A stretch of 64,000 nt of DNA, taken from contig JAGTQB010000002.1 in the NCBI GenBank assembly GCA_018396995.1, positions 1,503-65,502 of the forward strand, in the 5' to 3' direction. Position numbers and translations under genes: made by a program. Source of the stretch: Candidatus Bathyarchaeota archaeon (GTDB taxonomy: Archaea; Thermoproteota; Bathyarchaeia; Bathyarchaeales; DTEX01). Below the pieces are notes generated by a model that saw only the letters and a program-made list of their open reading frames with translations, was not told the origin of the DNA and did not search any database. This document shows positions 32,472-47,720 of the stretch, one piece after another (position 1 is the first letter of the stretch; each line of letters begins with the position of its first letter).

Positions 32472-33326
32472 TTGGCAGTCATTGAAGCAAGAAACCTAAC
32501 ATACTCATATCCGTTTGCAGATAAACCAGCTATCGAGGACATAAACTTGGCAATCGAGAGGGGAGAATTTGTCCTCCTCACTGGACCCAGCGGCTGCGGA
32601 AAAACCACGCTCTGCAGATGCTTTAATGGGCTTATACCACACTTCTATGGCGGTAAGCTTGAGGGCGAAGTTTGGGTTGCTGGATTAAAAACGGATGAAC
32701 ACCCAATCCATGAGCTGGCGAAACACGTCGGCTTAGTCTTCCAGAACCCTGAGAACCAACTGTTCGCCCTCACTGTGGAAAAAGATGTAGCCTTTGGGCT
32801 AGAGAACCTCGGGCTCCCAAGAGACGAAATTCGTAGGAGGGTTGATTGGGCCTTAAAGGTTACAGGGATATATGATTTAAAGGATAGGGCTCCCTTCGAG
32901 CTCTCTGGAGGACAGCAGCAACGCGTCGCAATAGCATCAATCCTCGCAATGCAGCCGGAGATTATGGTTCTAGATGAGCCAACGTCATTCCTTGACCCCC
33001 TCAGCGCCAGAAGCATTTTAGAAACAATTTATCAGCTGAACAGGGAGCTAGGGATAACAATTATATTGATTGAGCATAGATTGGACCTGGCCGCAAGGTA
33101 TGCTGACCGCATTATTGTTATGGATCGCGGCCACATTATTTTAGATGGGGAGCCAAGGAAAATCTTTTTGGACGACAGAATTAAATTGGTTGGTGTTGGA
33201 TTGCCGAAGGTTGTTAGGCTTTATCTTGCTCTAAGGGATGATAACGTGAACCTTAAAAGGGTTCCACTGAGCCCGGAGGAAGCCTCTAGATTAATTGCGG
33301 AGGTGCTCAACTCTGATAGAAGCTGA
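32472..33326 (+). CDS. ecfA1: ECF transporter ATPase EcfA1
   Basis: GPSGCGKTT, VFQNPENQL, LSGGQQQRVAIA, LDEPTSFLD, IEH. Confidence 0.92.
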   Translation: MAVIEARNLTYSYPFADKPAIEDINLAIERGEFVLLTGPSGCGKTTLCRCFNGLIPHFYGGKLEGEVWVAGLKTDEHPIHELAKHVGLVFQNPENQLFALTVEKDVAFGLENLGLPRDEIRRRVDWALKVTGIYDLKDRAPFELSGGQQQRVAIASILAMQPEIMVLDEPTSFLDPLSARSILETIYQLNRELGITIILIEHRLDLAARYADRIIVMDRGHIILDGEPRKIFLDDRIKLVGVGLPKVVRLYLALRDDNVNLKRVPLSPEEASRLIAEVLNSDRS

Positions 33327-34137
33327 AAACGTCTACTTCATATACCCAAATGGGGTTGAGGCCCTTAAAGGCGTTTCTCTTAGGATAAATGATGGAGAGT
33401 TTGTTGCAATAATGGGTCAGAACGGTGCGGGAAAGACTACATTAGTAAAGCATTTTGTAGGTTTATTGAAGCCGACTAAAGGTAGGGTCTTGGTAGATGG
33501 TGTTGACACGAGAACCGTTAGCGTAGCTCAGCTCGCCAGGAAAGTTGGCTTCGTCTTTCAGAATCCAGACCACCAATTGTTCAGCGAAACAGTTGAAGAT
33601 GAAATAGCCTTCGCCTTAAGAAACTTTGGTTTCGATGAGAAGACCGTTAGGGAGAGGGTTGACTGGGCGCTAAACCTCCTAGACTTAACTCAGTACCGAA
33701 AGACATCGCCATTTATGCTAAGCGGCGGGGAGAGGAAGAGGGTTGCCTTAGCCTCAGTCTTGGCATGGGATCCAAAGATACTGATACTTGATGAGCCGAC
33801 CATAGGGCAAGATGCATACCAGAAGGAGAGACTGAGACACTTTATAATCCAGATGAATCAGCAGGGTAAGACCGTAATAATCGTTACGCATGATATAGAG
33901 TTTGTTGCTGAATGCGAGCCTAGGGTGATTTTAATGGTTAATGGTAGGATAATCGCCGACGGGGATGCTAGGGAGGTTCTCACCGACACAGTAGCTATAA
34001 AAGAGGCATCTTTAGTGCTGCCTGAGATAACACAGGTGTTTATGGGACTCAATGACCTGGGCTTTTCGTGGAAGGTTTTAGGGGTTTATGAGGCTAAATG
34101 CTTAATACTTGAGAGGCTCCGTGGGGTTAGGATATGA
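33295..34137 (+). CDS. ecfA2: ECF transporter ATPase EcfA2
   Basis: GQNGAGKTT, FQNPDHQLF, LSGGERKRVALA, LDEPTIGQD. Confidence 0.92.
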   Translation: MRRCSTLIEAENVYFIYPNGVEALKGVSLRINDGEFVAIMGQNGAGKTTLVKHFVGLLKPTKGRVLVDGVDTRTVSVAQLARKVGFVFQNPDHQLFSETVEDEIAFALRNFGFDEKTVRERVDWALNLLDLTQYRKTSPFMLSGGERKRVALASVLAWDPKILILDEPTIGQDAYQKERLRHFIIQMNQQGKTVIIVTHDIEFVAECEPRVILMVNGRIIADGDAREVLTDTVAIKEASLVLPEITQVFMGLNDLGFSWKVLGVYEAKCLILERLRGVRI

Positions 34138-34925
34138 GCATATTTGAGGGCTTAAGGTTTAAAACTATTTCGTCACCAATACATAGAATTGATCCCAGAG
34201 CCAAGTTCATCTATGTGTGCGTTTTATTCGCCATTGCAGTATTATTCAGCCAGCTGATTCCGCTCCTAATATTATTCTTCTCCCAGATGCCACTAATCAT
34301 AATAGCTAAGCTAAAGAGGGAGTGGCTGCGCTTAATGAGGGGGTCAATGTTCTTTGCCGCGATAATCTTTATTGCCAACATGGTTTCACTATACTTTTAC
34401 GGTGGCACCCAATCCTTAGCAGCAGTTGTAGAGCATTCCCTAGCAATGACCACGAGATTTCTAATTCTAGTAGAATCCTTCTCAATATTCTTCGCAACCA
34501 CATCCCCAGATATGCTCAGCCTATCTCTTGAGCAAATAGGCGTACCCTACGAATTCTGCTTCGCATTCACAACAGCTATCAGGTTTGTCCCAGTTCTGGC
34601 GGAGGAGGCGCAGACAATAATGGACGCACAGAAGGCCCGCGGGTTGGAGCTTGAGCGTGGGAACTTTATAAAGAGGGTAAAAAACTATATACCAATTCTG
34701 ATACCGCTGATTGTTAGCGCCATAAGAAGAAGTATGGAACTTGCGGAGGCCATGGAGTCAAGAGCATGGGGCGCATCAAAGAAGCGGACAAGCTTGTACT
34801 CATTAAAGATGAAGACTAAGGACTATATTTTCATCGTAGCTTCAATTATAGTTCTCCTAGTCTCCATATATGTGCGTTTCTTTATTAGCATACCGAGTGT
34901 AACAGAGCTAATGCATCTCGGCTAA
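34134..34925 (+). CDS. ecfT: ECF transporter transmembrane component T
   Basis: IHRIDPRAK, AIRFVPVL...I.DAQKARG, LAEAMESRA. Confidence 0.93.
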   Translation: MSIFEGLRFKTISSPIHRIDPRAKFIYVCVLFAIAVLFSQLIPLLILFFSQMPLIIIAKLKREWLRLMRGSMFFAAIIFIANMVSLYFYGGTQSLAAVVEHSLAMTTRFLILVESFSIFFATTSPDMLSLSLEQIGVPYEFCFAFTTAIRFVPVLAEEAQTIMDAQKARGLELERGNFIKRVKNYIPILIPLIVSAIRRSMELAEAMESRAWGASKKRTSLYSLKMKTKDYIFIVASIIVLLVSIYVRFFISIPSVTELMHLG

Positions 34926-35416
34926 GCTCTTTTCACATAACACTTGCCTATCGCATTTACGAGTGCTCCAGCATACCTCTTAACAGCATCCCTAACCTCC
35001 GGGCTCATCTTCTCCCCTAAGCCGAGGTTTCTCGGCTCTACGCCTAACAAAATAACCTTTGCATTAGTCTCCTTCTGTATTAATGATGTTAGCAAACTAA
35101 GCGGCATCGCATGCGTAGATATAGTTTCGTCTGGTATCTGCTCCGGGGGTATGAGCCTAGCTTCACCCGGCTCCTTGCCGAAGAGCGCTGCATCGATTAT
35201 AAGGACATGAGATGGCTTAAACCTCTTTATTTTGCCAATGAAATTCTCGGGAGCCGACCCGCCATATACCACCCTAACGTTTCTTGGAACCTTACCCTTT
35301 ATCTCCTTCACGATCTCCAGCCCTAGGGAATCATCTCCTCTAAGGGGGTTGCCAACACCAATTATGACAAGTCTTCTGTAACCGCTTAGCCAAGTCTTAA
35401 GCTCGTCTTCAACCAT
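34922..35416 (-). CDS. hycI: Hydrogenase maturation endopeptidase, HycI type
   Basis: IGVGNPLRGDD, G.APEN, IIDAA, STH..PL. Divergent from the hydrogenase genes. Confidence 0.92.
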   Translation of the reverse strand: MVEDELKTWLSGYRRLVIIGVGNPLRGDDSLGLEIVKEIKGKVPRNVRVVYGGSAPENFIGKIKRFKPSHVLIIDAALFGKEPGEARLIPPEQIPDETISTHAMPLSLLTSLIQKETNAKVILLGVEPRNLGLGEKMSPEVRDAVKRYAGALVNAIGKCYVKRA

Positions 35417-35537
35417 TTTTGTGTCATAACATTTCCTATAAAGAATAGGAGATTTAAAGGTTACCTTCCTGCAACTTAAAGAAAGTCCTATATACTCTAA
35501 GTTTAAAATATATGTAATTTAAAATTGAGGGAAATGT

Positions 35538-36008
35538 ATGAAGAGTAATACAGCTGAGCAAAAGGTTCTCCTATACGACCCTACAAGGTGCACTGGATGT
35601 CTCTTCTGCCAAATTGCTTGTTCCTACCAGCACTTCAAAGAAATCGGTTTAGAGAAAACCAACCTTCGAATAATATTTGATGAGAAGACAGGCGAGTTTG
35701 AGGCAATTTACTGCCAGCATTGTGATGAACCTCTTTGCGTCGCTGCATGCCCAAATGAGGCTGCCGTAAAAGATGAAGTGACAGGCTTAGTGAGGATAAA
35801 TCCAATTAGGTGTATTGGCTGCAAAACATGTACTGTTGCCTGTCCCCTCTCAGCTCCATGGTTTAATGCTGAGCGGCGCATCTCCATGAAATGCGACTTC
35901 TGTGATGGAGATCCTAAATGCGCAAAATTCTGTTCACCCCAAGCTATCAGGGTTGCGTTGAGAAAGGAGGCGTGGGAGTTTAATAAAAACCGTTATTCAG
36001 GGGTGTAA
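35538..36008 (+). CDS. 4x[4Fe-4S] ferredoxin-like electron transfer subunit (HycB/CooF/DmsB-like)
   Basis: CTGCLFCQIAC, CQHCDEPLCVAACP, CIGCKTCTVACP, KCDFC.GDP.CAKFC. Confidence 0.9.
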   Translation: MKSNTAEQKVLLYDPTRCTGCLFCQIACSYQHFKEIGLEKTNLRIIFDEKTGEFEAIYCQHCDEPLCVAACPNEAAVKDEVTGLVRINPIRCIGCKTCTVACPLSAPWFNAERRISMKCDFCDGDPKCAKFCSPQAIRVALRKEAWEFNKNRYSGV

Positions 36009-36011
36009 TAT

Positions 36012-36695
36012 ATGGTTGTGCAACTCGAATCCGAGATAATAAATTACTTGAGGGAGATTTTAGGAGACGACCTAATAAAGGTTTATAGGCAGCGGGAGAG
36101 GAGAATATTCGCTATCATTAAGCCAGCAGTCCTTAGGAGAACAATTGAAGCCTTAAAGAGCAAGTATAGCGACATGCGCTTCATGACTCTCTCCGCGGTT
36201 GATAATGGCTTAGATATGGAATACCTATACCACTTCAACATCAACGGCATAGTCCTAACAATAAGAGTTTTAAGGCCGAAGGAGGAGCCTATACTTGAAT
36301 CCATAGCCGATATCATCCCAGCAGCAAACTTCATTGAGAGGGAAATATCAGACTTATTTGGAGTGAAATTAGTGAATCATCCGGAGCTCGATCCATCTGG
36401 CTTAATATTGACTAAGGACTGGCCCGAAGATCAGAGACCTTTAAGGAGACCCTTTGAGGGAGTCCTGCCATTAAAGGCTAGGCCTGTTGCCGAAGCATTA
36501 ATAGCGAGCGGTTGCGTGGCTCCTATATCAACCTTTGTCCAAAAGAAGCGTGAAGAAAGTGGCCTACAAAAATCTCCCCCCTTCCCCTTCACCAATGAAA
36601 AGATTTTGGGCGAGTATCATGGTATCATTAAGGCCTCCGGTATTGGTGATAGGGTTGGTTTTGACTGGGAGAAGAGGAGACTCCGGTATAAGTAG
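36012..36695 (+). CDS. NuoC/EchD-like hydrogenase subunit with a C-terminal HdrC-tail-like extension
   Basis: LSAVD...YLYHF, SIADIIPAANFIEREISDLFGV....HP, DWP....PLR (NuoC core), then about 75 extra residues. Confidence 0.85.
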   Translation: MVVQLESEIINYLREILGDDLIKVYRQRERRIFAIIKPAVLRRTIEALKSKYSDMRFMTLSAVDNGLDMEYLYHFNINGIVLTIRVLRPKEEPILESIADIIPAANFIEREISDLFGVKLVNHPELDPSGLILTKDWPEDQRPLRRPFEGVLPLKARPVAEALIASGCVAPISTFVQKKREESGLQKSPPFPFTNEKILGEYHGIIKASGIGDRVGFDWEKRRLRYK

Positions 36696-37583
36696 TTGAG
36701 GGTGATGGATATGGTTAAGTATGCCTTCTTCCTAGGTTGCCAGATCCCGATGCGGCTGCCAAATATTGAGGTGGCTACGAGAAAGGTTTTTGAGAAACTT
36801 AATGTAGAGGCTGTTGACCTACTTGGTTATTCATGTTGCCCCGAGCCAGTTGTATCCCGCCTAGTGGATGAGGAGACTGCATTGGTTATATCCGCAAGGA
36901 ATTTAACCTTAGCTGAAGAAATGGGGTTAGACATGATAACTCTATGTAATGGATGCTATGAAACTCTAGCCGAGGCAAACGAGGTTCTGAAACATGATGC
37001 CGAGAAAAGGAGCAAAGTTAATGAAATCTTGAGGAAATATGACAGGGAATATGAGGGTAAAATTGATGTTAAACATGTTATCGAGGTTCTTTACGAGGAC
37101 ATAGGTTTAAAGAAGATTAAGAGCCTAGTTGTTAAGCCCCAGAAAATGCGCGTTGCATTGCATTACGGTTGCCACCTATACCGCGAATATAAGAGTGCTG
37201 ACATAATGCGTAAGCCGAGGATGATGCGGGAGATGGTTGAGCAGACAGGTGTTCAGGTAGTGGATTATGGTCTTGAGAGGATGTGTTGTGGTTACCCAAG
37301 TATGCAGGCGAGCGAAGAATTCTCGCTTAAGGAGAGACTAGCTCGTAAACTAAGCAAGGTTGTTAGTGCTGGAGCGGATGCCGTGGTCACCGCTTGCCCA
37401 GCCTGCATGATACAGTTTGAGCTTGGCCAAGTAATGTTGAGGGCGCACGGGGTCCAATTTAATGTGCCATGCATAAACCTAATGGAGCTATTAGCCTTGT
37501 CATTTGGTGTTCCATCCAAAGAGTTACTCCTAGAGTTTCATAGGAGCCCTGTTTTACAGTTAATTAGAAGGTTGGAGGGATAA
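36696..37583 (+). CDS. hdrB: Heterodisulfide reductase subunit B (copy 1)
   Basis: Two complete CCG domains: LGC..SCCPEP..LCNGC and HYGCH..MCCG..ACPAC. Confidence 0.92.
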   Translation: MRVMDMVKYAFFLGCQIPMRLPNIEVATRKVFEKLNVEAVDLLGYSCCPEPVVSRLVDEETALVISARNLTLAEEMGLDMITLCNGCYETLAEANEVLKHDAEKRSKVNEILRKYDREYEGKIDVKHVIEVLYEDIGLKKIKSLVVKPQKMRVALHYGCHLYREYKSADIMRKPRMMREMVEQTGVQVVDYGLERMCCGYPSMQASEEFSLKERLARKLSKVVSAGADAVVTACPACMIQFELGQVMLRAHGVQFNVPCINLMELLALSFGVPSKELLLEFHRSPVLQLIRRLEG

Positions 37584-37588
37584 GTAAA

Positions 37589-38716
37589 ATGCCGGAGAAA
37601 GTTTATATTGGGCCTTACAGACCACAGCTGGTTGAGCCTGAACGTTTTGAGCTCCTTGTTGAGGGAGACAGGATAATTGATGCTAAGATGGAGCTCGGTT
37701 ACATGCATAGGGGCATAGAGAAATTATTTACCACGAGAACATATATGCAGAACTTAGCTTTGGCTGAAAGGATATGCGGGATATGCAGCGGAGTACATAC
37801 CCTATGTTATGCGCAGACGGTTGAAAGATTGATGGGCGTAGATGTCCCAGAGAGGGCGAGGTACCTAAGATGCATATATATGGAGCTTGAGCGCCTACAC
37901 AGCCATTATCTATGGTTCGGAATACTGGCCCATAGCCTACATGAGCATGAAATCTTCGCAAAAATAATGGGTGAGAGGGAGATAATTCAAGACTTATTCG
38001 AATACTTAACAGGAAACAGGATTAACTATGCGATAAACACCATTGGCGGTGTGCGTAGGGATATAACGCCGGAGAAGGCTGAGAAGATACGTAAAGTCTT
38101 AAAGACGCTTAGGTCCCTCTCAGACTACATAATGTCGCTACTAGACGATAATGGGGTCCTCACGAAGAAGACTAAAGGTGTAGGCGTGCTACCAAGGGAT
38201 AAAGCCATAGAGGTCGGTGCGGTAGGCCCAGTTTTAAGAGCCTCCGGAGTTACTAGCGACGTAAGAAAAGATGATCCATATGCAGCATATGATAAACTTA
38301 ACTTCGAAGTCATTGTTGAGAAGGATGGAGACCTCCGCGCCAAATCTCTTGTTAGGGCTAGAGAGACGTATGAGAGCATGAAAATTATTGAGCAAGCCTT
38401 AGATAATCTCCCATCGGGTGATATAGCCGCAAAGCCTGGAGAGCCTAAGGTTGGCGAGGAGATAGGCAGGACAGAAGCTCCGAGGGGCGAGCTAATATAT
38501 TACATTAAGTCTAATGGCACAAATATTCCAGAGAGAGTTAAGGTTCGCACCCCCTCATACGCCAATAACTTCGCCATCCTTGCAATGCTCCGCGGCGAGT
38601 ACCTTAAAAACGCTAGGGCAGTGATAGAGAGCATTGATCCATGCTTCGCATGCACGGACCGTGTGGTGGTTGTTGATGCTAGGACTGGTGTAAGGAGGAT
38701 TATGAATTTAAAGTAG
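37589..38716 (+). CDS. [NiFe]-hydrogenase large subunit, group 4 type
   Basis: GYMHRGIEK, L1 ERICGICS..H, ELERLHSH, EAPRGE, L2 SIDPCFACTDR followed by a 17-residue cleavable tail. Confidence 0.95.
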   Translation: MPEKVYIGPYRPQLVEPERFELLVEGDRIIDAKMELGYMHRGIEKLFTTRTYMQNLALAERICGICSGVHTLCYAQTVERLMGVDVPERARYLRCIYMELERLHSHYLWFGILAHSLHEHEIFAKIMGEREIIQDLFEYLTGNRINYAINTIGGVRRDITPEKAEKIRKVLKTLRSLSDYIMSLLDDNGVLTKKTKGVGVLPRDKAIEVGAVGPVLRASGVTSDVRKDDPYAAYDKLNFEVIVEKDGDLRAKSLVRARETYESMKIIEQALDNLPSGDIAAKPGEPKVGEEIGRTEAPRGELIYYIKSNGTNIPERVKVRTPSYANNFAILAMLRGEYLKNARAVIESIDPCFACTDRVVVVDARTGVRRIMNLK

Positions 38717-38732
38717 TTGGGGGTGAAGTTTA

Positions 38733-39641
38733 ATGGATAAGATTTCTGTTTATCGTTTCTTATCTGCTGGCTGTAATGCGTGCGATGTGGAGGTTCTTGA
38801 GTGCCTTGCCCCGCGTTATGGTCTTGCTAGCCTTGGCGTTGAGGTTGTTGAGGAGCCTGAGAAAGCAAATGTTCTAATTTTGACTGGTGCTGGAACAGTT
38901 AAGGGTAGGGAGGCGCTTCTAGAGGTATACGAAAAGATAAATCCACCGAAGATAGTTATTGCTGTTGGAAACTGCTCGATAACAAAGAACATCTTCGATA
39001 AGGGTTATCCAATAATTGGCCCCCTAAATAAGCTTATTCCAGTCAACTATTATATTCCCGGGTGCCCGCCTAGACCGCAGGCGATAATTAAGGCTGTAGC
39101 CGATATACTTGGCGTGAAGATTGAGGAGAGGGAGGAGTGGTGGCAAACTCCAGAGGGCTTTCGTGGTAGGCACGAAATAGATAGAGAGAAATGTATTGGA
39201 TGTGGGGCATGCGCCCAAATATGTACTGCCGACGCAATAGAAGTTATTGACGGCCCAGAGAAGAGGATAATCAAGGTCAATTATGTGCATTGTACTTTCT
39301 GCGCCTTCTGCCAAGATGAGTGCCCCACAAAGGCGCTGAAACTCACAGGAGCATATCATTTATTGACAAATGATCTCCAAAAGGCTAGGGTTGAGAACGA
39401 GGTTAACCTACTTACCTGCGCTATATGCGGGGGGACATTCTTCCCGGAGAAGCAGATAGATTGGGCGCTAAAGCGTATTGTCGAGGAGAAGGCTCCAATA
39501 TACAGAGACTTCAGCAGCGAAATTTTAGATGCCGTTAAAATATGCACTAATTGTAGAAGAAGTGTGGAGAGTATTAAGAAGGCGAAAAGACTTCTAACTA
39601 AGCTCTCGGAAAAAGCTAGGGCTACAGTGCTCCGGAAATAG
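38733..39641 (+). CDS. Fused hydrogenase small subunit (NuoB/HycG-like) and 2x[4Fe-4S] NuoI/HycF-like subunit
   Basis: GCNACDVE, AVGNC, IPGCPPRP, then PEGFRG, CIGCGACAQIC, CTFCAFCQDECP, plus extra CAIC and CTNC pairs. Confidence 0.9.
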   Translation: MDKISVYRFLSAGCNACDVEVLECLAPRYGLASLGVEVVEEPEKANVLILTGAGTVKGREALLEVYEKINPPKIVIAVGNCSITKNIFDKGYPIIGPLNKLIPVNYYIPGCPPRPQAIIKAVADILGVKIEEREEWWQTPEGFRGRHEIDREKCIGCGACAQICTADAIEVIDGPEKRIIKVNYVHCTFCAFCQDECPTKALKLTGAYHLLTNDLQKARVENEVNLLTCAICGGTFFPEKQIDWALKRIVEEKAPIYRDFSSEILDAVKICTNCRRSVESIKKAKRLLTKLSEKARATVLRK

Positions 39642-39715
39642 ACATATTTTTATCTTACCCCTTCCTTTCTATCTCTTTAAAAGAGGATGAGGTCTCCTGT
39701 TAAGGAGGATTAAGG

Positions 39716-40261
39716 TTGGCTGAGGAGAGCATATCCATCTCTTCCAAAATAGATCCGAAGTTTAGGTATGAAGTTATTAGGATGCCTGGTGGAGAAAAGC
39801 TTCTGCAATGCTTTCAGTGTGGGACATGTACATCTGATTGCCCAGTTGCAAGGTTTAGTGATAAATATAGGCCGAGAAAGATTATTAGGATGGCTCAGCT
39901 CGGCCTGAGGGAGAAGGTTTTAAGCAGTGACTTCCTATGGCTATGTGCCTCATGCTTCACGTGTACTGATAGATGCCCACAAGGGGTTGAGGTTGCAAGT
40001 GTAATAAGGGTTCTAAAGAACATGGCTGCTGCCGAGGGGCGGATACCAGAAGTATTTAAGGTTCTTCTAAGCAATCTAATTAAAACTGGCTACATATATG
40101 AGATTCCAGAGTCGAGGATTAAGAAGCGCGAGTCTCTAGGTCTACCACCCCTACCAAAGGTTAACATTGAAGGCTTAAATAAATCGCTGCAGGGCATGAG
40201 TATTGAGAGTTTCCTTAAAGGGGTTTCTGAGAAAGGTAGGGAGGCTAAGTTGTGGGTATGA
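39716..40261 (+). CDS. hdrC: Heterodisulfide reductase subunit C
   Basis: CFQCGTCTSDCP, PRKIIRM..LG, WLCASCFTCTDRCPQGV. Confidence 0.95.
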   Translation: MAEESISISSKIDPKFRYEVIRMPGGEKLLQCFQCGTCTSDCPVARFSDKYRPRKIIRMAQLGLREKVLSSDFLWLCASCFTCTDRCPQGVEVASVIRVLKNMAAAEGRIPEVFKVLLSNLIKTGYIYEIPESRIKKRESLGLPPLPKVNIEGLNKSLQGMSIESFLKGVSEKGREAKLWV

Positions 40262-41130
40262 GCCAGAAATACCTGTTTTATTTGGGGTGCGCCATACCTT
40301 ACAGGGTCTCGTCATATGAGGTTTCTGCTAGAAAAGTTTTGGAGAAGTTAGGTGTGGAGTTAGTCGAGATGCCGGAGTTTAATTGCTGTGGTCTCCCACT
40401 TGAACCATTAAGCCATGAGCTAATGTTAATCTTATCTGCGAGGAACCTTGCTGTAGCGGAGCAAACGGGATTAAACATTTTAACTCTCTGTCCAGGATGC
40501 TTCAGTACGCTAAGGAAGACTGGTAAGACGCTTAAGGAGAATAAAGCTCTTAAAGAAGAGATTAATAGGCATCTAAAGGAATCCGGCTTAGAATTTAAGG
40601 GAGGCATTGAGGTTAAGCATATCTCCCAAGTCTTAGTTGAAGACATTGGTCTCGATAAAATTAAAAAGGCAATTGTTAAGCCATTGAGAAATCTTAAGCT
40701 CGCAGGACATAGCGGATGCCACCTCTCAAGACCGAAGAAGTATATTGGGTTTGAGGATCCCGAGAACCCAAGAGTTCTGAAGATGCTTATTAGCGTAACT
40801 GGAGCGAAGCCAGTAGAGTATTTAGGCGAGACGGAGTGTTGCGGCTCAACGATAGCCGCCCTAGATGACAAGGTTTCGCTGTCATTAGTTAGAGAGAAGC
40901 TCCTCCATGTCAAGGAAGCTGGCGCCGATGCGCTGATAACAATTTGCCCAGCTTGTCACATGATGTATGAGGCTAATCAGATACGAGCTGAGAAAATGTT
41001 TGGTGAGAAATACGGTATTCCGGTGCTGCATTATACGCAGCTCCTCGGCCTGGCAATGGGTATGCAACCGGGGGAGCTAGGATTCGATGAGCTACGGGTT
41101 AAGCCCACAAAAATCCTAGAGAAGATTTAA
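40252..41130 (+). CDS. hdrB: Heterodisulfide reductase subunit B (copy 2)
   Basis: LGC..NCCG..LCPGC and HSGCHLSRP..ECCG..ICPAC, PVLHYTQLLGLAMG. Confidence 0.93.
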   Translation: MGMSQKYLFYLGCAIPYRVSSYEVSARKVLEKLGVELVEMPEFNCCGLPLEPLSHELMLILSARNLAVAEQTGLNILTLCPGCFSTLRKTGKTLKENKALKEEINRHLKESGLEFKGGIEVKHISQVLVEDIGLDKIKKAIVKPLRNLKLAGHSGCHLSRPKKYIGFEDPENPRVLKMLISVTGAKPVEYLGETECCGSTIAALDDKVSLSLVREKLLHVKEAGADALITICPACHMMYEANQIRAEKMFGEKYGIPVLHYTQLLGLAMGMQPGELGFDELRVKPTKILEKI

Positions 41131-41195
41131 GCGTCTAAAAAATAACATCTTCACTAACATTATTTTTATGAAGCATAATTATAGAGAATTGTGTT

Positions 41196-43478
41196 ATGCG
41201 TTTAAAGATAATTGTTTCTGGCATTGTTCAGGGGGTTGGTTTCCGCCCCTTCATATATAGAACTGCTGTTAAGAACCGCTTGAAGGGTTATGTTAGGAAT
41301 AGAGGGGACTCGTGTGTAGAAATAGTTGTTGATGGCGGGGACGAAGATATAAAAAGATTTCTAAGAGATCTTATTGAGAAGAAACCTCCGTTAGCCAGGA
41401 TTTATGAGGTTATAACTACGCCCATTGAATCCACTGGGGAAAATTACGAGGACTTTAAAATATATAGGAGTTCTGATGAAGCGGAGTTATCTGGCTCGGT
41501 TATACCCCCAGACATAGCTATATGCGACGAGTGTCTTATGGAGATGCGTGATCCATCAAACCCAAGATACGATTACTTCTTCATAACATGCGTAAACTGT
41601 GGGCCTAGATATACGATCATAGAAGATGTCCCATATGATAGGGAGAACACCACGATGCGGGACTTCCAAATGTGCGGCTTCTGTAAGTCGGAGTACATGG
41701 ATCCCATAAACAGGAGGTTCCACGCGCAAACCGTCGCATGTCCGAGGTGTGGCCCAAGGGCATATTTACTGGATGCTAATGGTGGCATTGTTGAGTGTAG
41801 GGATCCAATTAGGGAAGCTGGTAGGCTCATTTCTGAGGGGTGTATTATTGCGGTTAAAGGTTATGGAGGCTTCCATATAGCTGCCTCAACCCTTCTCGAT
41901 GAGCCGCTTAAGAGATTAAGGGCTGCAAAGCATAGGAGGCAGAAACCATTCGCTATAATGGCTAGGAGCTTAGAGGCTGTGAAGAGCTTTGCTAAGGTAA
42001 GCTCCTGGGAGGAGAAGGTATTAACATCCTATGAGCGCCCAATAGTTTTGTTAGAGAAAGGCGAAAACTACTATTTATCTGAGCTTATTTCTCCGGGCCT
42101 ACATAATGTTGGTGTAATGTTACCCTATACTGGATTACATTACATGCTGTTTGACTGGGTTAAAGATCCGGCTTTTGTCATGACCAGCGCCAACCCGCCA
42201 AACCAGCCGATAATTAAAGATGATGATGAAGCCCTAAGGAAGTTACGCGGCCTAGTAGACTATTTTCTAATGCATAATAGGCGTATAGCCCATAGGTGTG
42301 ACGACTCGGTTTTACGCTTGCATGGATATAAGCCAGTCTTTATAAGGAGGTCGAGGGGTTATGCACCGGAGCCGATTAGGCTGAGACTTAAGGCTAGGAG
42401 CTCCGCACTCGGGCTTGGGGGCGAAAAGAATAATACTGCGTGTCTCGTGGTTGGCGATAAAGCCTTCCTCTCGCAGCATATAGGTGACGTTGAGAACCTT
42501 GAGACTCTAGTGTTCCTTGAGTCCGCATCCAAGAGACTTATGCGCTTAACGAATAGTAATGTTGATGTGGTTGCATGCGACCTACACCCAAAGTTCGCCA
42601 CCACAATGCTGGCTAGTAGACTCTCTGAGGAGTATGGCTGCAGGGTTCTTCAGGTTCAGCATCACTACGCCCATACAGCCGCCTTGTTAGCTGAACATGG
42701 GCTAAATGAGATTATAGCCATATGCTGTGATGGCTATGGATACGGTTTGGATGGAGGTGCGTGGGGCGGAGAAATAATATTCGGCTCGCTCAATCCGCTG
42801 GAGTTTAAGCGACTGGGCCATCTAGAGGAGCAGCCACTGCTTGGAGGGGATATGGCAACAAGATACCCTATTAGGGTTGCAGCTGGCATACTATATAAGC
42901 GCGTGGATATAGAAGAATGGCTTATGGAGAACAGTATTAATTTGCCCCATGGGCTTAGAGAGGCGCAGCTCATACTCTCAAAGCTTAAGAGGGGTGACGT
43001 TAGAATTAAGACAACCAGCTGTGGTAGAGTTCTGGATGCAGCCTCGGCAATTCTGGGAGTATGTTATGAAAGAACATATGAGGGTGAGCCTGCAATGAAG
43101 CTCGAGTCGGCGGCAATAAACGGTAGAAATGTTATTGAGCTTGAACCGCAAATCAGGGGGACAACATTAGAGACAACTAACATAATAGTCTCGCTATTCG
43201 AGGGAAGAAAGGTTTACTCTAGGAGGGATTTAGCCTACTCTATTCACTATTATTTGGCTAGGGGATTGGCTAAGCTGGCCGTTGATCTAGCGATAGAGTA
43301 TGGTGTTAAGAGCATCGGCTTTACTGGGGGCGTCGCATGCAATCAAATAATTACTGACATTATGCGCAGTTTCATTGAGGAGAGCGGACTAAATTTTTTC
43401 GTTCACGAAGCCGTGCCACCCGGCGATGGTGGTTTATCATTTGGCCAAGCAATCGCGGCTGCTTTCTCTCAAGATTAA
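41196..43478 (+). CDS. hypF: Hydrogenase maturation carbamoyltransferase
   Basis: GIVQGVGFRPF acylphosphatase domain, Zn fingers, RRFHAQ..ACP.CGP, DLHP, QHHYAH, PPGDGGLSFGQ. Confidence 0.97.
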   Translation: MRLKIIVSGIVQGVGFRPFIYRTAVKNRLKGYVRNRGDSCVEIVVDGGDEDIKRFLRDLIEKKPPLARIYEVITTPIESTGENYEDFKIYRSSDEAELSGSVIPPDIAICDECLMEMRDPSNPRYDYFFITCVNCGPRYTIIEDVPYDRENTTMRDFQMCGFCKSEYMDPINRRFHAQTVACPRCGPRAYLLDANGGIVECRDPIREAGRLISEGCIIAVKGYGGFHIAASTLLDEPLKRLRAAKHRRQKPFAIMARSLEAVKSFAKVSSWEEKVLTSYERPIVLLEKGENYYLSELISPGLHNVGVMLPYTGLHYMLFDWVKDPAFVMTSANPPNQPIIKDDDEALRKLRGLVDYFLMHNRRIAHRCDDSVLRLHGYKPVFIRRSRGYAPEPIRLRLKARSSALGLGGEKNNTACLVVGDKAFLSQHIGDVENLETLVFLESASKRLMRLTNSNVDVVACDLHPKFATTMLASRLSEEYGCRVLQVQHHYAHTAALLAEHGLNEIIAICCDGYGYGLDGGAWGGEIIFGSLNPLEFKRLGHLEEQPLLGGDMATRYPIRVAAGILYKRVDIEEWLMENSINLPHGLREAQLILSKLKRGDVRIKTTSCGRVLDAASAILGVCYERTYEGEPAMKLESAAINGRNVIELEPQIRGTTLETTNIIVSLFEGRKVYSRRDLAYSIHYYLARGLAKLAVDLAIEYGVKSIGFTGGVACNQIITDIMRSFIEESGLNFFVHEAVPPGDGGLSFGQAIAAAFSQD

Positions 43479-43489
43479 ATTACTTTTCC

Positions 43490-44452
43490 CTATAAGCCTA
43501 GAATTTCCTCCTTAATGGCCCTATGGGTCTCCGAGATGGGTGCAACTGTATTCACGACATATATGTCCAGGAGATTGAAGAGGTTCATGAAGAACCTCCT
43601 TCTCAAATTCGTTTTCCGTTCATCTCTAACTAATAGATGTGGATTGCAAAAGTCGGAGTTCTCAACACATTTAAGGGCTTCGCTTGGTGATAGCCTGCTA
43701 AAGATTGTCTTATCCTCAGGATCACGCTTCAAAATTATGGCCTTTTTAAGGGTCGTCATCGGAATAATCTTTCCCCTCCCAACGATCCACCTAACATTTA
43801 CTATGGCTCTACCCATAGAATCAAACTCGGCTTTATCAACCAGCCTCTTATACTCTCCCCAAATCTCTGCTACATCTGCCTGGATATAAAAGTTCTTTTC
43901 TGACGCAAATGCAAGAGCTTCTCCCCCCATTAAGCGCACAAAGAACCAGTCGTCTGAGACAGCGCGCACCCCTTTAAGTCTTAAAAGCCCATAGGTATGC
44001 GTTGTTTTCCCCGTACCTGGTGGCGCCATTAGGCAGACCCCCTGCCCATCTATATCTATACATGCACCATGAACGGAGTTTATTCCATGCTCATCCTCCA
44101 GTATATCGCTCGCAACGCTAAGGGCTATCGATTTGACCCAACCATAGTAGTCCACGTTTATTAAGAAGGCTGTTTTAGAAAGCGGATCGTATAGAACCTG
44201 CATCCTCCCATCCGTCTCACTTGTAACTACTAGTCTACCATGGGAGCGAATGCTCGCTGACATGGGATAAAAGCTTTCCTCCCATCTCTCCTTCACATGC
44301 CTTTCATCAGTGAGGAGCTTAATACAGCAACCATAAATGTCAGCCTTAACTTCATAGAGAAACCGGCCACTATACTTCTCCATTAATTTATCCTTCTCCT
44401 CAATCGAAATTAATTTAACCTCATACTTCACAAGAATCCCCAAAATACACAT
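43490..44452 (-). CDS. HPr kinase/PEP carboxykinase-like P-loop protein of unknown function
   Basis: VHGACIDI.G.G..L.APPGTGKTT followed by VSDDW. Confidence 0.7.
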   Translation of the reverse strand: MCILGILVKYEVKLISIEEKDKLMEKYSGRFLYEVKADIYGCCIKLLTDERHVKERWEESFYPMSASIRSHGRLVVTSETDGRMQVLYDPLSKTAFLINVDYYGWVKSIALSVASDILEDEHGINSVHGACIDIDGQGVCLMAPPGTGKTTHTYGLLRLKGVRAVSDDWFFVRLMGGEALAFASEKNFYIQADVAEIWGEYKRLVDKAEFDSMGRAIVNVRWIVGRGKIIPMTTLKKAIILKRDPEDKTIFSRLSPSEALKCVENSDFCNPHLLVRDERKTNLRRRFFMNLFNLLDIYVVNTVAPISETHRAIKEEILGL

Positions 44453-44563
44453 AAAATGCGGAAAATTAAAATGCTATGGCTGCGTGCACATAGGTTTATG
44501 ATAAAGAAGATGTGCTGGAAAGGTATTTATTCTCCGCGTCCCATATTCTGAAGAGATTGGAAG

Positions 44564-44797
44564 ATGTGCTTGGCTGTTCCAGCCAAGGTTATCGAGATAA
44601 ATGGTGATTTGGCTAAAGTTGATTTTGGCGGCGGGGTAATTAGGGAGGCAAACATATCGCTTGTAGATGCCAAAGTTGGCGATTATGTCCTCATCCACGC
44701 AGGCTATGCAATACAAGTCTTAGACGAGGAAGAGGCTAAAGAGACCCTGAGACTATGGATGGAGATTCTAAAAGCTGAGGAAGGGATGAGAGAATAA
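44564..44797 (+). CDS. hypC: Hydrogenase assembly chaperone
   Basis: MCLAVPAKV, GDYVLIHAGYAI. Confidence 0.97.
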   Translation: MCLAVPAKVIEINGDLAKVDFGGGVIREANISLVDAKVGDYVLIHAGYAIQVLDEEEAKETLRLWMEILKAEEGMRE

Positions 44798-45894
44798 TGC
44801 TCCTTAAAGATTTTAGGGATCCATGGCTCGCTAAAAGGATAGTTGAAAAGATACATGAGATTTCTCCTAAAAAAGACGTGGTAAAAATTTGTCATGTATG
44901 TGGGACTCATGAATGGACGATATCACATTACGGCATAAGAAGTCTATTGCCAAGTAACGTTGATGTTATTGCTGGCCCAGGCTGCCCGGTATGCATTGTC
45001 CCAGCTTCAGAAGTGGATGAGGCCATTGAGCTAGCGTTAAAGGGGGCAACTCTCATATGTTTTGGTGATGCAGCTAGGGTTCCGGGCTCACAGCTGTCTC
45101 TTATAGAGGCTAAAGCCAAGGGTGCTGATATCCAAATAGTTTATAGTGTTATGGATGCCGTGAAGGTGGCTGAGAAGGAGCCGAATAGAGAATTCGTCTT
45201 CTTTGCAATAGGCTTTGAGACGACGGCCCCCTTAACCGCTTATGAAGTGCTCAAAAAGCCTCCTAGAAACCTTAGTTTCCTAATATCTCATAGGCTTATT
45301 CCACCAGCCATGGAGCTCATGCTAGGTATAGGTGACTTGCAAATAGATGCCTTTATAGCCCCGGGTCACGTCAGCACAATTATAGGGTTAGAGCCATACG
45401 AGGTATTCCCGAAGGTTTATCGGATGCCGACAATCGTAGCTGGTTTCGAGCCGATAGATGTCCTCCTTGCAATATACATGGCCTTAAAACAGATTAAGAA
45501 CCGCATAGCAATTCTAGAAAACGAGTATAAGCGGGCGGTAAAATGGGATGGCAATGTTAAGGCAAAGGAGCTTATAAAAAAGGCCTTTAAAGTCGTTAGC
45601 GGAAATTGGCGTGGTCTAGGCAGAATACCAGACTCAACATTGGCACTTAGGGAGGAATATTTGGAGTATGACGCCCATGAAAAGCATGGTGTTAGAATTG
45701 AGAGGGGGATGGATATCCCCCCGGGGTGCCAATGCCACCTGGTTATAATAGGGAAGATAAAGCCAATAGAGTGCCCACTATTTATGAAGGCATGTACCCC
45801 CCAGAAACCAGTAGGGTCGTGCATGGTTGGAATAGAGGGAACATGTAGAATATGGGCTTCAGCCCGGCAAGAATTGAAGCCAAAGTTTATCTAA
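44797..45894 (+). CDS. hypD: Hydrogenase formation protein
   Basis: HVCGTHE, GPGCPVC, GFETTAP, PGHVSTIIG, C-terminal Cys cluster with CMV..EGTC. Confidence 0.97.
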   Translation: MLLKDFRDPWLAKRIVEKIHEISPKKDVVKICHVCGTHEWTISHYGIRSLLPSNVDVIAGPGCPVCIVPASEVDEAIELALKGATLICFGDAARVPGSQLSLIEAKAKGADIQIVYSVMDAVKVAEKEPNREFVFFAIGFETTAPLTAYEVLKKPPRNLSFLISHRLIPPAMELMLGIGDLQIDAFIAPGHVSTIIGLEPYEVFPKVYRMPTIVAGFEPIDVLLAIYMALKQIKNRIAILENEYKRAVKWDGNVKAKELIKKAFKVVSGNWRGLGRIPDSTLALREEYLEYDAHEKHGVRIERGMDIPPGCQCHLVIIGKIKPIECPLFMKACTPQKPVGSCMVGIEGTCRIWASARQELKPKFI

Positions 45895-45947: not shown

Positions 45948-46472
45948 GTGATCCCTTTGGAGCTTGAGATTATTAATGCCAAGATGAACCCCCTAAGTGA
46001 TGAAGATATTAGAGATATTGTTGAGATAGAGTGCCATCCATTGGTTAGGAAATGGCTTGTAGAGTACACGATTAAGGGATTTGAGGAGGAGCTTAGGGAG
46101 TACAAGGATTTCTTTAGTAAGCTACGCGGCAATGATAGGGTTGAGGTTTTGGTTGCAAAGATGAATAACCGGGTCGTTGGTTTCTTAGCCCTCTGGTGTG
46201 TTGATAATTGCGATGAGCAGGCAATGAGTATAGGGATAAGCGTTCACCCGGATTACTGGGGTAAAAATATAGCATCGACCCTCGTTAGGGAATCGATAAA
46301 GCTGGCTAAAAATAGGGGTGTGAAAAAGCTTATTATAGAGACTTTGGAGGAAAATGGTGCCATGAGACGAGTAGCGGAAAAACTTGGTTTCAAGCTTGAA
46401 ACAGTTAGGAGGGGGATAATTTTTAAAGATGGTGTATGCCATAATGAGGTTGCTTATACGCTGAGGATATGA
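45948..46472 (+). CDS. GNAT family N-acetyltransferase
   Basis: VVGF, IGISVHPDYWGKNIASTL (motif A), N.AM..V.EKLGF (motif B). Confidence 0.9.
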   Translation: MIPLELEIINAKMNPLSDEDIRDIVEIECHPLVRKWLVEYTIKGFEEELREYKDFFSKLRGNDRVEVLVAKMNNRVVGFLALWCVDNCDEQAMSIGISVHPDYWGKNIASTLVRESIKLAKNRGVKKLIIETLEENGAMRRVAEKLGFKLETVRRGIIFKDGVCHNEVAYTLRI

Positions 46473-46537
46473 ACCACGGTAACTCTAAAAATGTTAATAG
46501 AAAACTTTAATAGTTAGTGTATTTGGCATACATACTT

Positions 46538-46563
46538 ACTGTAGCACCATTTGGTGCTACAGT
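46538..46563. promoter_or_regulatory. Perfect 12-bp inverted repeat upstream of the kamA-like gene
   Basis: ACTGTAGCACCA-TT-TGGTGCTACAGT, downstream of a BRE/TATA-like AAAACTTTAATA (46501-46512) and 18 bp before the ATG. Confidence 0.6.
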
Positions 46564-46581
46564 GGGCGCGCGAAATAAAAT

Positions 46582-47697
46582 ATGGGGGAAGATTGGAAAA
46601 GTATTCTCCGGAAAAGCATTACTAGACCGGAGCAGATTCTTGAAAGGTTTAAGGTTGACATTAAGCCCATAAAAGCTGTTGCCGAAGTTTACCCAATGTT
46701 TGTATCAAAGTACTATTTCGATCTTATAGAAGAGGTTGATGACCCGATATGGAAGCAATGCATACCAAACCCACTTGAACTCCAGGATCCATATGGATAC
46801 GAGGATCCGCTTAATGAGGAAGGGGATAGCCCGGTGCCCGGTTTAGTGCATAGGTATCCTGATAGAGTTTTGATGTGTGTTTCAAATAGCTGCGCAACAT
46901 ATTGTAGATTCTGCACTAGGAAGAGGAAGGTTGGTAAGCCCTCCATTAAATTCTCGGACGACATTTATCTAGCGCAAATCAAATATATTCGTGAGAATCC
47001 AGGAATCAGAGACGTTCTTCTCTCAGGCGGAGACCCCTTTATGCTGCCGGATGAGAAAATAGAGTTCCTTTTAAAGAAACTTAGGGCTATTCCACACGTT
47101 GAGATACTGAGGATAGGGACTAGAGTTCCATGCACGCTGCCCCAGAGAATAACTCCAAAACTATGTAGAATCCTTAAAAAGTATCACCCATTGTACGTGA
47201 ATGTCCACTTTGAGCACCCACGTGAGATAACTGAAGAGAGCGAGCGCGCATGTGGATTATTAGCCGACGCTGGGATACCACTTGGAAACCAGTCCGTCCT
47301 ATTAAGGGGCGTTAACGATGACCCAGAGATCATGAAGAACCTAGTCCATAAGCTCCTTAAGATACGCGTTAGGCCATATTATTTATTCCAAATGGATCTC
47401 GTGAAGGGAACGTATCATTTTAGGACTAGGGTTGAGGTTGGACTTAAAATAATTGAAAGTCTCATTGGATGGACTTCTGGGCTAGCCGTGCCGAGGTTCG
47501 TTATAGATGCGCCGGGCGGTGGGGGAAAGATTCCAATCCAGCCAAACTATATTGTCTCAATAGATGATGAAAAAATTGTTCTAAGAAACTATGAGGGGAA
47601 GTTATTCGTTTATCCGCAGATACCTCCAGAGGGGCGAGACTACAAAGTTTATATGCAATACTTAACTCCTTTGAATTCCCCAGGTAAAGTGGCTTAG
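46582..47697 (+). CDS. KamA family radical SAM/PLP aminomutase (lysine 2,3-aminomutase-like)
   Basis: DPL.E, LVHRYPDRVL, CATYCRFCTRKR, LSGGDP, RIGTR.P..LPQRIT, NQSVLL.GVND, PYYLFQMD, VIDAPGGGGKIP (PLP lysine). Confidence 0.93.
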   Translation: MGEDWKSILRKSITRPEQILERFKVDIKPIKAVAEVYPMFVSKYYFDLIEEVDDPIWKQCIPNPLELQDPYGYEDPLNEEGDSPVPGLVHRYPDRVLMCVSNSCATYCRFCTRKRKVGKPSIKFSDDIYLAQIKYIRENPGIRDVLLSGGDPFMLPDEKIEFLLKKLRAIPHVEILRIGTRVPCTLPQRITPKLCRILKKYHPLYVNVHFEHPREITEESERACGLLADAGIPLGNQSVLLRGVNDDPEIMKNLVHKLLKIRVRPYYLFQMDLVKGTYHFRTRVEVGLKIIESLIGWTSGLAVPRFVIDAPGGGGKIPIQPNYIVSIDDEKIVLRNYEGKLFVYPQIPPEGRDYKVYMQYLTPLNSPGKVA

Positions 47698-47720
47698 GAG
47701 CACTGGGGTGCTTTTTTCTA

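Follow-up and report, generated by a model that had tools for sequence, protein, structure and literature searches.

The DNA analyzed here is a 64,000-nucleotide stretch of a Candidatus Bathyarchaeota archaeon genome (GenBank assembly GCA_018396995.1, contig JAGTQB010000002.1, positions 1,503 to 65,502), called the window below. It contains a gene cluster for a group 4 [NiFe]-hydrogenase interleaved with genes for heterodisulfide reductase (Hdr)-type subunits (Table 1). Gene order and gene identities were taken from an open reading frame (ORF) listing and from Pfam and NCBIfam scans. The intergenic distances from the polyferredoxin gene to hypF are 3, 0, 5, 16, 74, -10, and 65 bp, the first four of which lie within a five-gene core (35538-39641) encoding the polyferredoxin, a NuoC-like protein, the HdrB-type protein HdrB1, the hydrogenase large subunit (LSU), and a fused small subunit (SSU/I). 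The hdrB1 gene is thus placed between the genes of two hydrogenase subunits, NuoC and LSU, at distances of 0 and 5 bp. A previous annotation made from the letters of the window and its translated ORFs (the sequence-only reading) had listed this gene order and a spacing of 0 to 16 bp for the first five genes, and the family scans and measured gaps agree with it.

Table 1. Genes of the hydrogenase cluster, with positions in the window and the family matches on which their identities are based
Gene or product	Position	Strand	Family evidence
hycI, HycI-type maturation endopeptidase	34922-35416	- (divergent from operon)	TIGR00142 139.1 bits, cut-off 119.1; PF01750
HycB/CooF-like polyferredoxin, 156 aa, 16 Cys	35538-36008	+	Fer4_11 and related Pfam families
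NuoC-like subunit with HdrC-type C-terminal arm, 227 aa	36012-36695	+	PF00329 (NuoC-like domain)
HdrB1, CCG-domain subunit, 295 aa	36696-37583	+	PF02754 x2; TIGR03288 289.0 bits
Group 4 [NiFe] large subunit (LSU), 375 aa	37589-38716	+	PF00346 and PF00374
Small subunit, NuoB and NuoI/HycF fusion (SSU/I), 302 aa	38733-39641	+	PF01058, Fer4 families, NF009053
HdrC, 2x[4Fe-4S], 181 aa	39716-40261	+	TIGR03290 121.8 bits, cut-off 160; Fer4_8
HdrB2, 292 aa	40252-41130	+	PF02754 x2; TIGR03288 289.6 bits
HypF carbamoyltransferase (maturation)	41196-43478	+	TIGR00143 834.5 bits
320-aa ORF between hypF and hypC	43490-44452	-	Weak HPr-kinase C-terminal / HprK-related kinase A match, E ~3e-6, below cut-off
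HypC (maturation chaperone)	44564-44797	+	PF01455, E 5.8e-29
HypD (maturation)	44797-45894	+	PF01924, E 1.1e-137

Hydrogenase subunits and the HdrC-type arm

The LSU has both Ni-ligand motifs, L1 (RICGICSGVH) and L2 (DPCFACTDR), with all four Ni cysteines, and a tail of 17 residues after L2, as the sequence-only reading had noted for the ligands and for a tail after TDR. This tail is predicted to be a cleavable processing tail of the HycI type, and the gene of a HycI equivalog adjoins the operon. The best matches of the LSU in the PDB are MbhL of membrane-bound hydrogenase (MBH; 6cfw_L, 1.6e-75) and HycE of formate hydrogenlyase (FHL; 7z0s_E, 6e-71). It departs from its membrane-bound relatives in three motifs, with GPYRPQLVEP instead of GPQHPALHEP, HEHExF instead of GFDTLF, and K/E-NAR instead of ADIP (A-D-I/V-P). 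From the structures of complex I and MBH, we infer that the substituted positions are those that face NuoH.

SSU/I is a single fused polypeptide in which residues 6-131 form a NuoB/MbhJ/HycG-like domain and residues 135-292 a HycF/NuoI-like 2x[4Fe-4S] domain. PF01058 covers residues 14-124, and the Fer4 families and the HycF-type model NF009053 cover residues 140-292. Among solved structures, residues 6-123 correspond to MbhJ 27-144 and HycG 39-162, and residues 141-276 to HycF 27-160, so that the NuoB domain is without the N-terminal 26 to 38 residues of MbhJ and HycG. The polyferredoxin, a protein of the HybA/DmsB/HycB type, matches 8c0z_C (1e-28), 9mqx_E (1.2e-21), and HycB (7z0s_B, 1e-17); its nearest solved relatives are the Fe-S subunits of AOR/WOR-type enzymes and HycB. 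Its 16 cysteines would be enough for four [4Fe-4S] clusters, and it presumably serves as an electron wire. The solved relatives of these three proteins identify the module as a group 4, FHL/MBH-like hydrophilic arm, with a NuoD/HycE/MbhL-type large subunit, a NuoB-type small subunit with the proximal cluster, and a NuoI/HycF-type subunit. The C-terminal part of SSU/I (39440-39641, residues ~236-302) also has an extra CxxC...CxxC pair, with 17 cysteines in total, within the alignment to the HycF-type model; the pair could bind zinc or an additional cluster.

The NuoC-like protein is about 80 residues longer than an ordinary NuoC. When a profile of 34 NuoC orthologues was compared with the PDB, positions 6-147 matched NuoC, MbhK, and the N-terminal part of HycE, and positions 146-222 matched residues 107-183 of the 184 residues of HdrC (5odc_C, E 7.4e-7), colinear to both C termini. 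The added segment also matches the HdrC entries 8rvu_c, 8rvv_C, and 9sfi_E, and aligns colinearly with the HdrC encoded in the window itself (hhalign, E 6e-4). The fusion includes only the C-terminal arm of HdrC and not its ferredoxin (Fe-S) domain. In the HdrABC-MvhAGD structure described by Wagner et al. in 2017, the C-terminal part of HdrC is said to wrap around HdrB.

Similar arms are found in two other archaeal clusters. In a Nezhaarchaeales locus (L066), with the order Fdx-antiporter-NuoC::arm-HdrB-LSU-NuoH-HycF-NuoB-HycI, the arm is on NuoC and HdrB is adjacent. In Candidatus Culexmicrobium profundum (L090, 7582-7887), it is a separate protein of 101 aa encoded between the polyferredoxin and HdrB, which shows that the arm can exist unfused. 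The LSU of that cluster has 553 aa. No arm was found in 31 NuoC-like ORFs from 30 clusters without HdrB, and none was detected by BLAST in L062, one member of the window's own LSU clade (see below). Judging from these alignments, the arm occurs only in clusters that also contain HdrB.

HdrB1 has two complete CCG motifs, and their ten cysteines (C15, C47, C48, C84, C87, C159, C197, C198, C234, and C237) are invariant in 37 orthologues. The CCG motif follows the pattern CX31-39CCX35-36CXXC, and ten cysteines hold two noncubane [4Fe-4S] clusters. A complex prediction with NuoC and HdrB1, run on our own alignments, gave a median-run score of 0.81, while the best control scored 0.00; this mark was reached by 58 of 80 solved complexes and by 2 of 110 mismatched pairs. 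The runs agree in at least 96% of contacts, with a partner pLDDT of at least 87, and the modelled interface brings NuoC residues 152-215 against the N-terminal CCG half of HdrB1. As HdrB-HdrC complexes have already been solved, this pass is to be read as likeness to them and not as independent proof of binding. We propose, from the fusion and the model, that the arm is a clamp that holds HdrB1 on the hydrogenase. The direct physical link between HdrB and the hydrogenase postulated in the sequence-only reading gains support from both.

Distribution and membrane subunits

We searched for related clusters in a collection with one genome per species. The scan returned 79 loci, of which 41 with the five-gene core were counted. 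Their LSUs share 60 to 91% identity with that of the window, and nearly all are labelled Bathyarchaeia. The LSU is present in 41 loci, HdrB1 and SSU/I in 39 each, NuoC in 38, and the polyferredoxin in 37. The two loci without HdrB1 are cut at contig ends, as are all other absences of core genes that were checked. Since the five-gene core recurs in 41 related loci, its layout is not due to chance, and the linkage of HdrB to the hydrogenase genes, seen before only in the window, extends to related genomes. HycI (15 loci), HypF (13), HdrC (12), and HdrB2 (9) are found less often. The layout with two HdrB copies, which had been put forward as the possible novelty, is therefore not conserved.

In a maximum-likelihood tree of 77 LSUs, in which L066 and L090 stand in for named sequences of the published Ehd and Drh enzymes (discussed below), the 39 LSUs with HdrB adjacent and no NuoH form a single clade (SH-aLRT 100). 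This clade joins the other group 4 lineages in a polytomy with long branches, from which no sister group emerges. A single clade of all HdrB-linked LSUs, with L066 and L090 included, was not recovered in the tree and was not rejected either (p-AU 0.405). On parsimony, the Bathyarchaeia form would have arisen by secondary loss of NuoH and the antiporter. Among 401 sampled Bathyarchaeia genomes, at least 33 have a match of this clade (31 full-length with 56 to 100% identity and 2 partial), and many more carry only distant membrane-type LSUs. Among the 120 LSU homologues listed (74 to 100% identity), the named ones are labelled Bathyarchaeia or Bathyarchaeota. A record labelled Candidatus Krumholzibacteriaceae bacterium (L052) has a Bathyarchaeia-type core with 74% LSU identity that falls within the clade of the Bathyarchaeia, and probably represents an archaeal contig mis-binned into a bacterial metagenome-assembled genome (MAG).

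In classifications, group 4 hydrogenases figure as membrane-bound enzymes that translocate ions and are related to complex I by evolution. The NuoH-like and antiporter-like membrane anchor usually counted among their defining features is missing from the enzyme described here. We scanned the proteins for transmembrane (TM) segments with 19-residue Kyte-Doolittle windows. No window of 1.6 or more was found in the seven structural proteins, HycI, or HypF, while the neighboring CbiQ, which served as positive control, has 44 such windows. This bears out the earlier claim that the seven structural ORFs are without an obvious TM helix. In some NuoC orthologues, the arm has a single window at the threshold, and this hydrophobic stretch coincides with the modelled HdrB1 interface.

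The absence of NuoH and antiporter genes, noted before for the window, holds for its whole contig and extends well beyond it. In the 591,933 bases of the 41 related loci, no ORF resembles the NuoH or the antiporter of the host genome, no NuoH or antiporter gene lies within 10 kb of the core, and no TM protein is conserved beside it. The whole host genome has one NuoH gene and one antiporter-like gene, both on contig C23, where a second group 4 cluster (L014, C23:1-4874) encodes NuoB (140 aa), an LSU with Ni motifs (414 aa), NuoH, and NuoI, together with an unassigned ORF of 173 aa and a convergent antiporter-like gene running off the contig start. The NuoH family was not found in seven of ten other carrier genomes (G181, G106, G290, G082, G247, G190, and G304; 89 to 97% complete), and the three that have it (G044, G238, and G366) are exactly those with a second group 4 LSU. 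Five carriers were searched for the antiporter family, and none had a match. The sequence-only reading had named a cognate membrane module elsewhere in the genome as one finding that would speak against a soluble enzyme; the genome search pointed the opposite way. Because the C23 genes sit with their own NuoB, LSU, and NuoI, and most other carriers have no NuoH, we rejected such a module as the leading explanation.

Known systems, proposed reaction, and alternatives

HdrB-linked group 4 hydrogenases have been proposed from genomes before. Ehd was described in Methanomethylicia, and Ehe and an "Ehd-like" enzyme in Culexarchaeia, the latter clustering with Bathyarchaeia sequences (PMC9723716). 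Ehg was proposed in Nezhaarchaeia and Drh, which has no antiporter, in Methanocellales (PMC9723716, PMC12700198, PMC6046458). In the parts of these texts available to us, to which our statements on published work apply, all four are called membrane-bound or membrane-associated (PMC9723716, PMC12700198, PMC6046458, bioRxiv 10.1101/2022.08.18.504445), and Drh is proposed to reduce heterodisulfide directly with H2 and with no ion gradient (PMC6046458, PMC9723716). The Bathyarchaeia enzyme shares with Ehd and Ehe the hdrB gene embedded in a group 4 cluster and the proposed H2-linked disulfide reduction, but those enzymes are described with an ion antiporter, as is Ehg, and with TM subunits, as are all four (PMC9723716), whereas the Bathyarchaeia clade has neither NuoH nor antiporter. 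The L066 and L090 clusters are like it in the order Fdx-NuoC(arm)-HdrB-LSU and in the HdrC-type arm. However, L066 has an antiporter and NuoH and L090 has NuoH, while the Bathyarchaeia clade has neither, has NuoB and HycF fused, and forms a clade of its own with a support of 100. Drh resembles it as a group 4-type enzyme with HdrB and without antiporter, and is set apart by its description as "putative membrane-associated" and by its origin from a methanogen with CoM-S-S-CoB (PMC6046458, PMC9723716).

Among enzymes with solved structures, FHL-1 (group 4a, 7z0s) matches subunit for subunit: the polyferredoxin with HycB (1e-17), NuoC with the HycE N terminus (1.7e-9), the LSU with HycE (6e-71), and the two halves of the small subunit with HycG (1.4e-23) and HycF (5.2e-16). 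It differs in that the present enzyme has no FdhF, whose place as substrate module HdrB1 would take, and no HycC or HycD, that its HycG and HycF parts form one protein, and that NuoC and the LSU are separate proteins. MvhAGD-HdrABC (group 3c, 5odc) is comparable as a soluble complex that reduces disulfide with H2 and in which the C-terminal arm of HdrC holds HdrB. The present hydrogenase, however, belongs to group 4 and not to group 3, has no HdrA, FAD, or MvhD and hence no bifurcation site, and contains of HdrC just the arm, attached to NuoC; contig C42 of the host separately encodes a genuine Mvh/HdrABC set.

Two published systems were considered as well. The cluster is not Hfo (Loh et al. 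2021, PMC7886697), a Nuo-like complex of 11 subunits in the membrane in whose description HdrB is unmentioned. The "fpo-like operon with hdrB2" (Qi et al. 2021, PMC8407382) is stated always to have fpoBDHL, which does not fit this cluster, although the cluster may still correspond to type #8 of that study. Papers on Bathyarchaeia hydrogenases describe Hfo, Fpo-like, Mvh, and Ech types and not this enzyme (PMC7886697, PMC8407382, PMC10477458, PMC9534799). The available texts, figures and supplements aside, state no membrane-free group 4 enzyme, no fusion of NuoC with an HdrC arm, and no NuoB-HycF fusion; the tree in Fig. 4I of PMC9723716 may already contain sequences of this clade as "Ehd-like." The novelty claimed in the sequence-only reading stands in part. 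A group 4 H2:disulfide enzyme has been published as an idea before (Ehd, Ehe, Drh, and Ehg; PMC9723716, PMC6046458), so that what seems new is the fully soluble architecture alone.

The host is a hot-spring organism by the origin of its DNA, since the DNA runs that contain the stretch are hot-spring metagenomes. Its genome (1.46 Mb in 42 contigs, 98.5% complete) has a complete group 3c set at C42:26000-38000 (L108), with HdrA (1001 aa), MvhD, HdrC, HdrB, MvhG, MvhA, and a protease, and three HdrA::MvhD fusion proteins of about 800 aa on contigs C5, C6, and C14 (L105-L107). The contig of the window has no MvhD match and no HdrA homologue by tblastn. HdrA and MvhD are thus absent from the window as reported before, but not from the organism, which has HdrA, MvhD, and a full Mvh/HdrABC elsewhere. 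The enzyme would therefore be a second route to a disulfide and not a replacement for bifurcation. McrA (PF02249) was not found in the host genome or in five of five relatives, and HdrA/MvhD systems are kept in all five carriers searched. An McrA-less genome with Mvh/HdrABC and HdrA::MvhD fusions points to an extensive thiol/disulfide redox system.

Expression was looked for in RNA data. One metatranscriptome-library run contains 66% of the sampled words of the stretch. Among its contigs, one of 3847 nt covers 36063-39906, from NuoC to the start of HdrC, and a second of 1301 nt covers 39877-41141; both come from a strain about 1% different. In run X12, the contig depth is 26 to 33 over the core and 0 to 10 in the flanks, which is suggestive, although contig depth cannot rank genes. 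Two other RNA runs (X16 and X17) contain next to nothing of the stretch, which is not evidence of absence.

On balance, we lean toward the view that the enzyme is a soluble five-subunit H2:disulfide oxidoreductase with HdrB1 tethered by the NuoC arm, working without bifurcation or ion pumping. It would be a cytoplasmic [NiFe]-hydrogenase derived from a group 4 hydrophilic arm after loss of the NuoH-like and antiporter-like subunits, with the arm of NuoC tethering HdrB1 in the place that FdhF has in FHL. Electrons from H2 would leave the [NiFe] site by way of the proximal cluster and cross the two HycF-type clusters and then the HycB-like polyferredoxin before reaching the noncubane clusters of HdrB1, which would then reduce a putative disulfide, with neither flavin-based bifurcation nor ion translocation involved. 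The organism has no Mcr, but it has several HdrA::MvhD proteins in addition to Mvh/HdrABC. The enzyme would accordingly use H2 directly to bring the thiol/disulfide pool of these systems back to the reduced state, a possible advantage when H2 is scarce. The Drh of Methanocella is upregulated in syntrophic (low-H2) coculture (PMC6046458), which we count in favor of this proposal.

Several points weigh against the proposal of a soluble H2:disulfide oxidoreductase. A reaction between H2 and a disulfide without energy conservation wastes much free energy, and Mvh/HdrABC is already present. With McrA absent, CoM-S-S-CoB is an unlikely substrate. HdrB1 scores 289.0 bits with the curated equivalog model TIGR03288, below its cut-off of 345.15. 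The passing complex model may merely reflect memory of solved HdrB-HdrC complexes. The ten genomes searched for NuoH were chosen by us among carriers and not at random, MAG incompleteness applies to them, and a non-homologous membrane anchor is possible. The RNA evidence consists of assembled contigs of one run, which cannot prove transcription or an operon.

An alternative is that the enzyme mainly evolves H2. It would then be a three-way redox hub that, being soluble and not pumping ions, acts as an overflow valve next to the Ech-like enzyme of the membrane, with reduced ferredoxin from fermentation entering through the HycB-like subunit and its electrons going to H2 at the [NiFe] site or to disulfide at HdrB1. 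Group 4 enzymes are typically H2 evolvers, MBH and FHL are the nearest solved relatives, and enzymes of the FHL and Coo types usually take in electrons through a HycB/CooF-like subunit. The host has a separate pumping group 4 enzyme on C23, and this enzyme is the sole group 4 hydrogenase in seven of the ten other carriers, so that some of them may need it for H2 production. The sequence, however, is silent on direction, we know of no HycB-like protein that docks free ferredoxin, and HdrB1 and the arm co-occur so strictly as to suggest a central and not an optional place for disulfide chemistry. We regard a mainly H2-evolving role as unlikely, though it deserves more weight than the following three ideas. 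That the enzyme is membrane-associated after all, by borrowing the NuoH/antiporter module of C23 or through a non-homologous anchor, would agree with the published descriptions of Ehd, Ehe, Drh, and Ehg (PMC9723716, PMC6046458), with the presence of one NuoH and one antiporter-like gene in the host, and with the single Kyte-Doolittle peak in the arm of some NuoC orthologues. We consider it improbable: the C23 membrane genes adjoin their own hydrogenase, the other carriers mostly have no NuoH and, where searched, no antiporter, the 41 loci have no conserved TM neighbor, the NuoB domain is shortened and the LSU motifs altered, and the hydrophobic stretch of the arm falls in the modelled HdrB1 interface.

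HdrB1 might also act on another substrate or as an electron relay, like the CCG-domain proteins SdhE/TfrB, LutA/LldE, GlpC, and GlcF. Its score below the TIGR03288 cut-off, its matches to the SdhE (133 bits), LdhH, and TfrB models, and the lack of an obvious heterodisulfide in an organism with no Mcr would fit such a role. Yet TIGR03288 is by far the best model (289 vs 133 bits), all ten CCG cysteines are invariant, the protein appears to be embraced by an HdrC-type arm like a true HdrB, and the HdrA/MvhD systems of all five carriers imply a thiol/disulfide pool, so we place little confidence in a function other than disulfide reduction. For the origin of complex I, a pre-membrane stage has been postulated, in which a soluble hydrogenase had yet to combine with an Mrp-type antiporter. 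The clade would be the first naturally soluble group 4 lineage, a free-standing hydrophilic arm that holds HdrB by the HdrC-derived extension of NuoC, and, given the polytomy at the base of the LSU tree, it may be a survivor of such a stage instead of a product of secondary loss; we hold this to be a long shot next to the loss that parsimony suggests.

If the soluble H2:disulfide oxidoreductase is real, this conserved lineage, which is probably expressed, would demonstrate that the hydrophilic arm is able to function by itself as a soluble enzyme, in a form that also fused NuoB with HycF and gained an HdrC arm for holding HdrB. Structural and biochemical studies of the wiring between HdrB and a [NiFe] site in the absence of flavin bifurcation would gain a compact, membrane-free target of five subunits. 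Bathyarchaeia are a very abundant group in sediments and hot springs, and the enzyme would give a handle on the thiol/disulfide couple that non-methanogenic members cycle through their many Hdr proteins. As a simple marker in sequences, the arm itself would identify group 4 enzymes linked to HdrB, both the membrane-bound and the soluble ones.

Downstream HdrC-HdrB2 pair and neighboring genes

Apart from the closest relatives, few loci have the HdrC-HdrB2 pair 3' of the core. HdrB2 shares 56.7% identity with the Mvh-linked HdrB on C42, while HdrB1 shares 38.6%. With TIGR03288, HdrB2 is also below the equivalog cut-off (289.6 vs 345.15 bits). In locus L056, an MvhD gene is found 5' of the HdrC-HdrB pair and MvhG and MvhA genes 3' of it, which makes the pair there part of a canonical group 3c Mvh/Hdr set next door. 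In genome G304, an MvhD gene appears to lie directly 3' of the small subunit gene, judged from coordinates alone. From the L056 context and the likeness of HdrB2 to the Mvh-linked HdrB, the pair is probably a canonical Hdr module juxtaposed to the soluble hydrogenase and not a constant subunit of it. Its place beside the hydrogenase may reflect a shared substrate.

The ORF of 320 aa between hypF and hypC has a counterpart of about 313 aa at the same place in L028 and L063. Directly upstream of the cluster (32472-34925) is an ECF-type cobalt/nickel transporter set, made up of genes for two ABC ATPases and for a transmembrane component of the CbiQ type, which overlaps the end of hycI by 4 bp and may supply Ni to the hydrogenase. 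The CbiQ-like neighbor of 263 aa is kept only in the closest relatives (L026-L028 and L063). On the 3' side of hypD (45948-48776), there are genes for a GNAT acetyltransferase, a lysine-2,3-aminomutase-like radical SAM protein, and an ATP-grasp ligase. The first two resemble ablB and ablA, a gene pair for N-epsilon-acetyl-beta-lysine.

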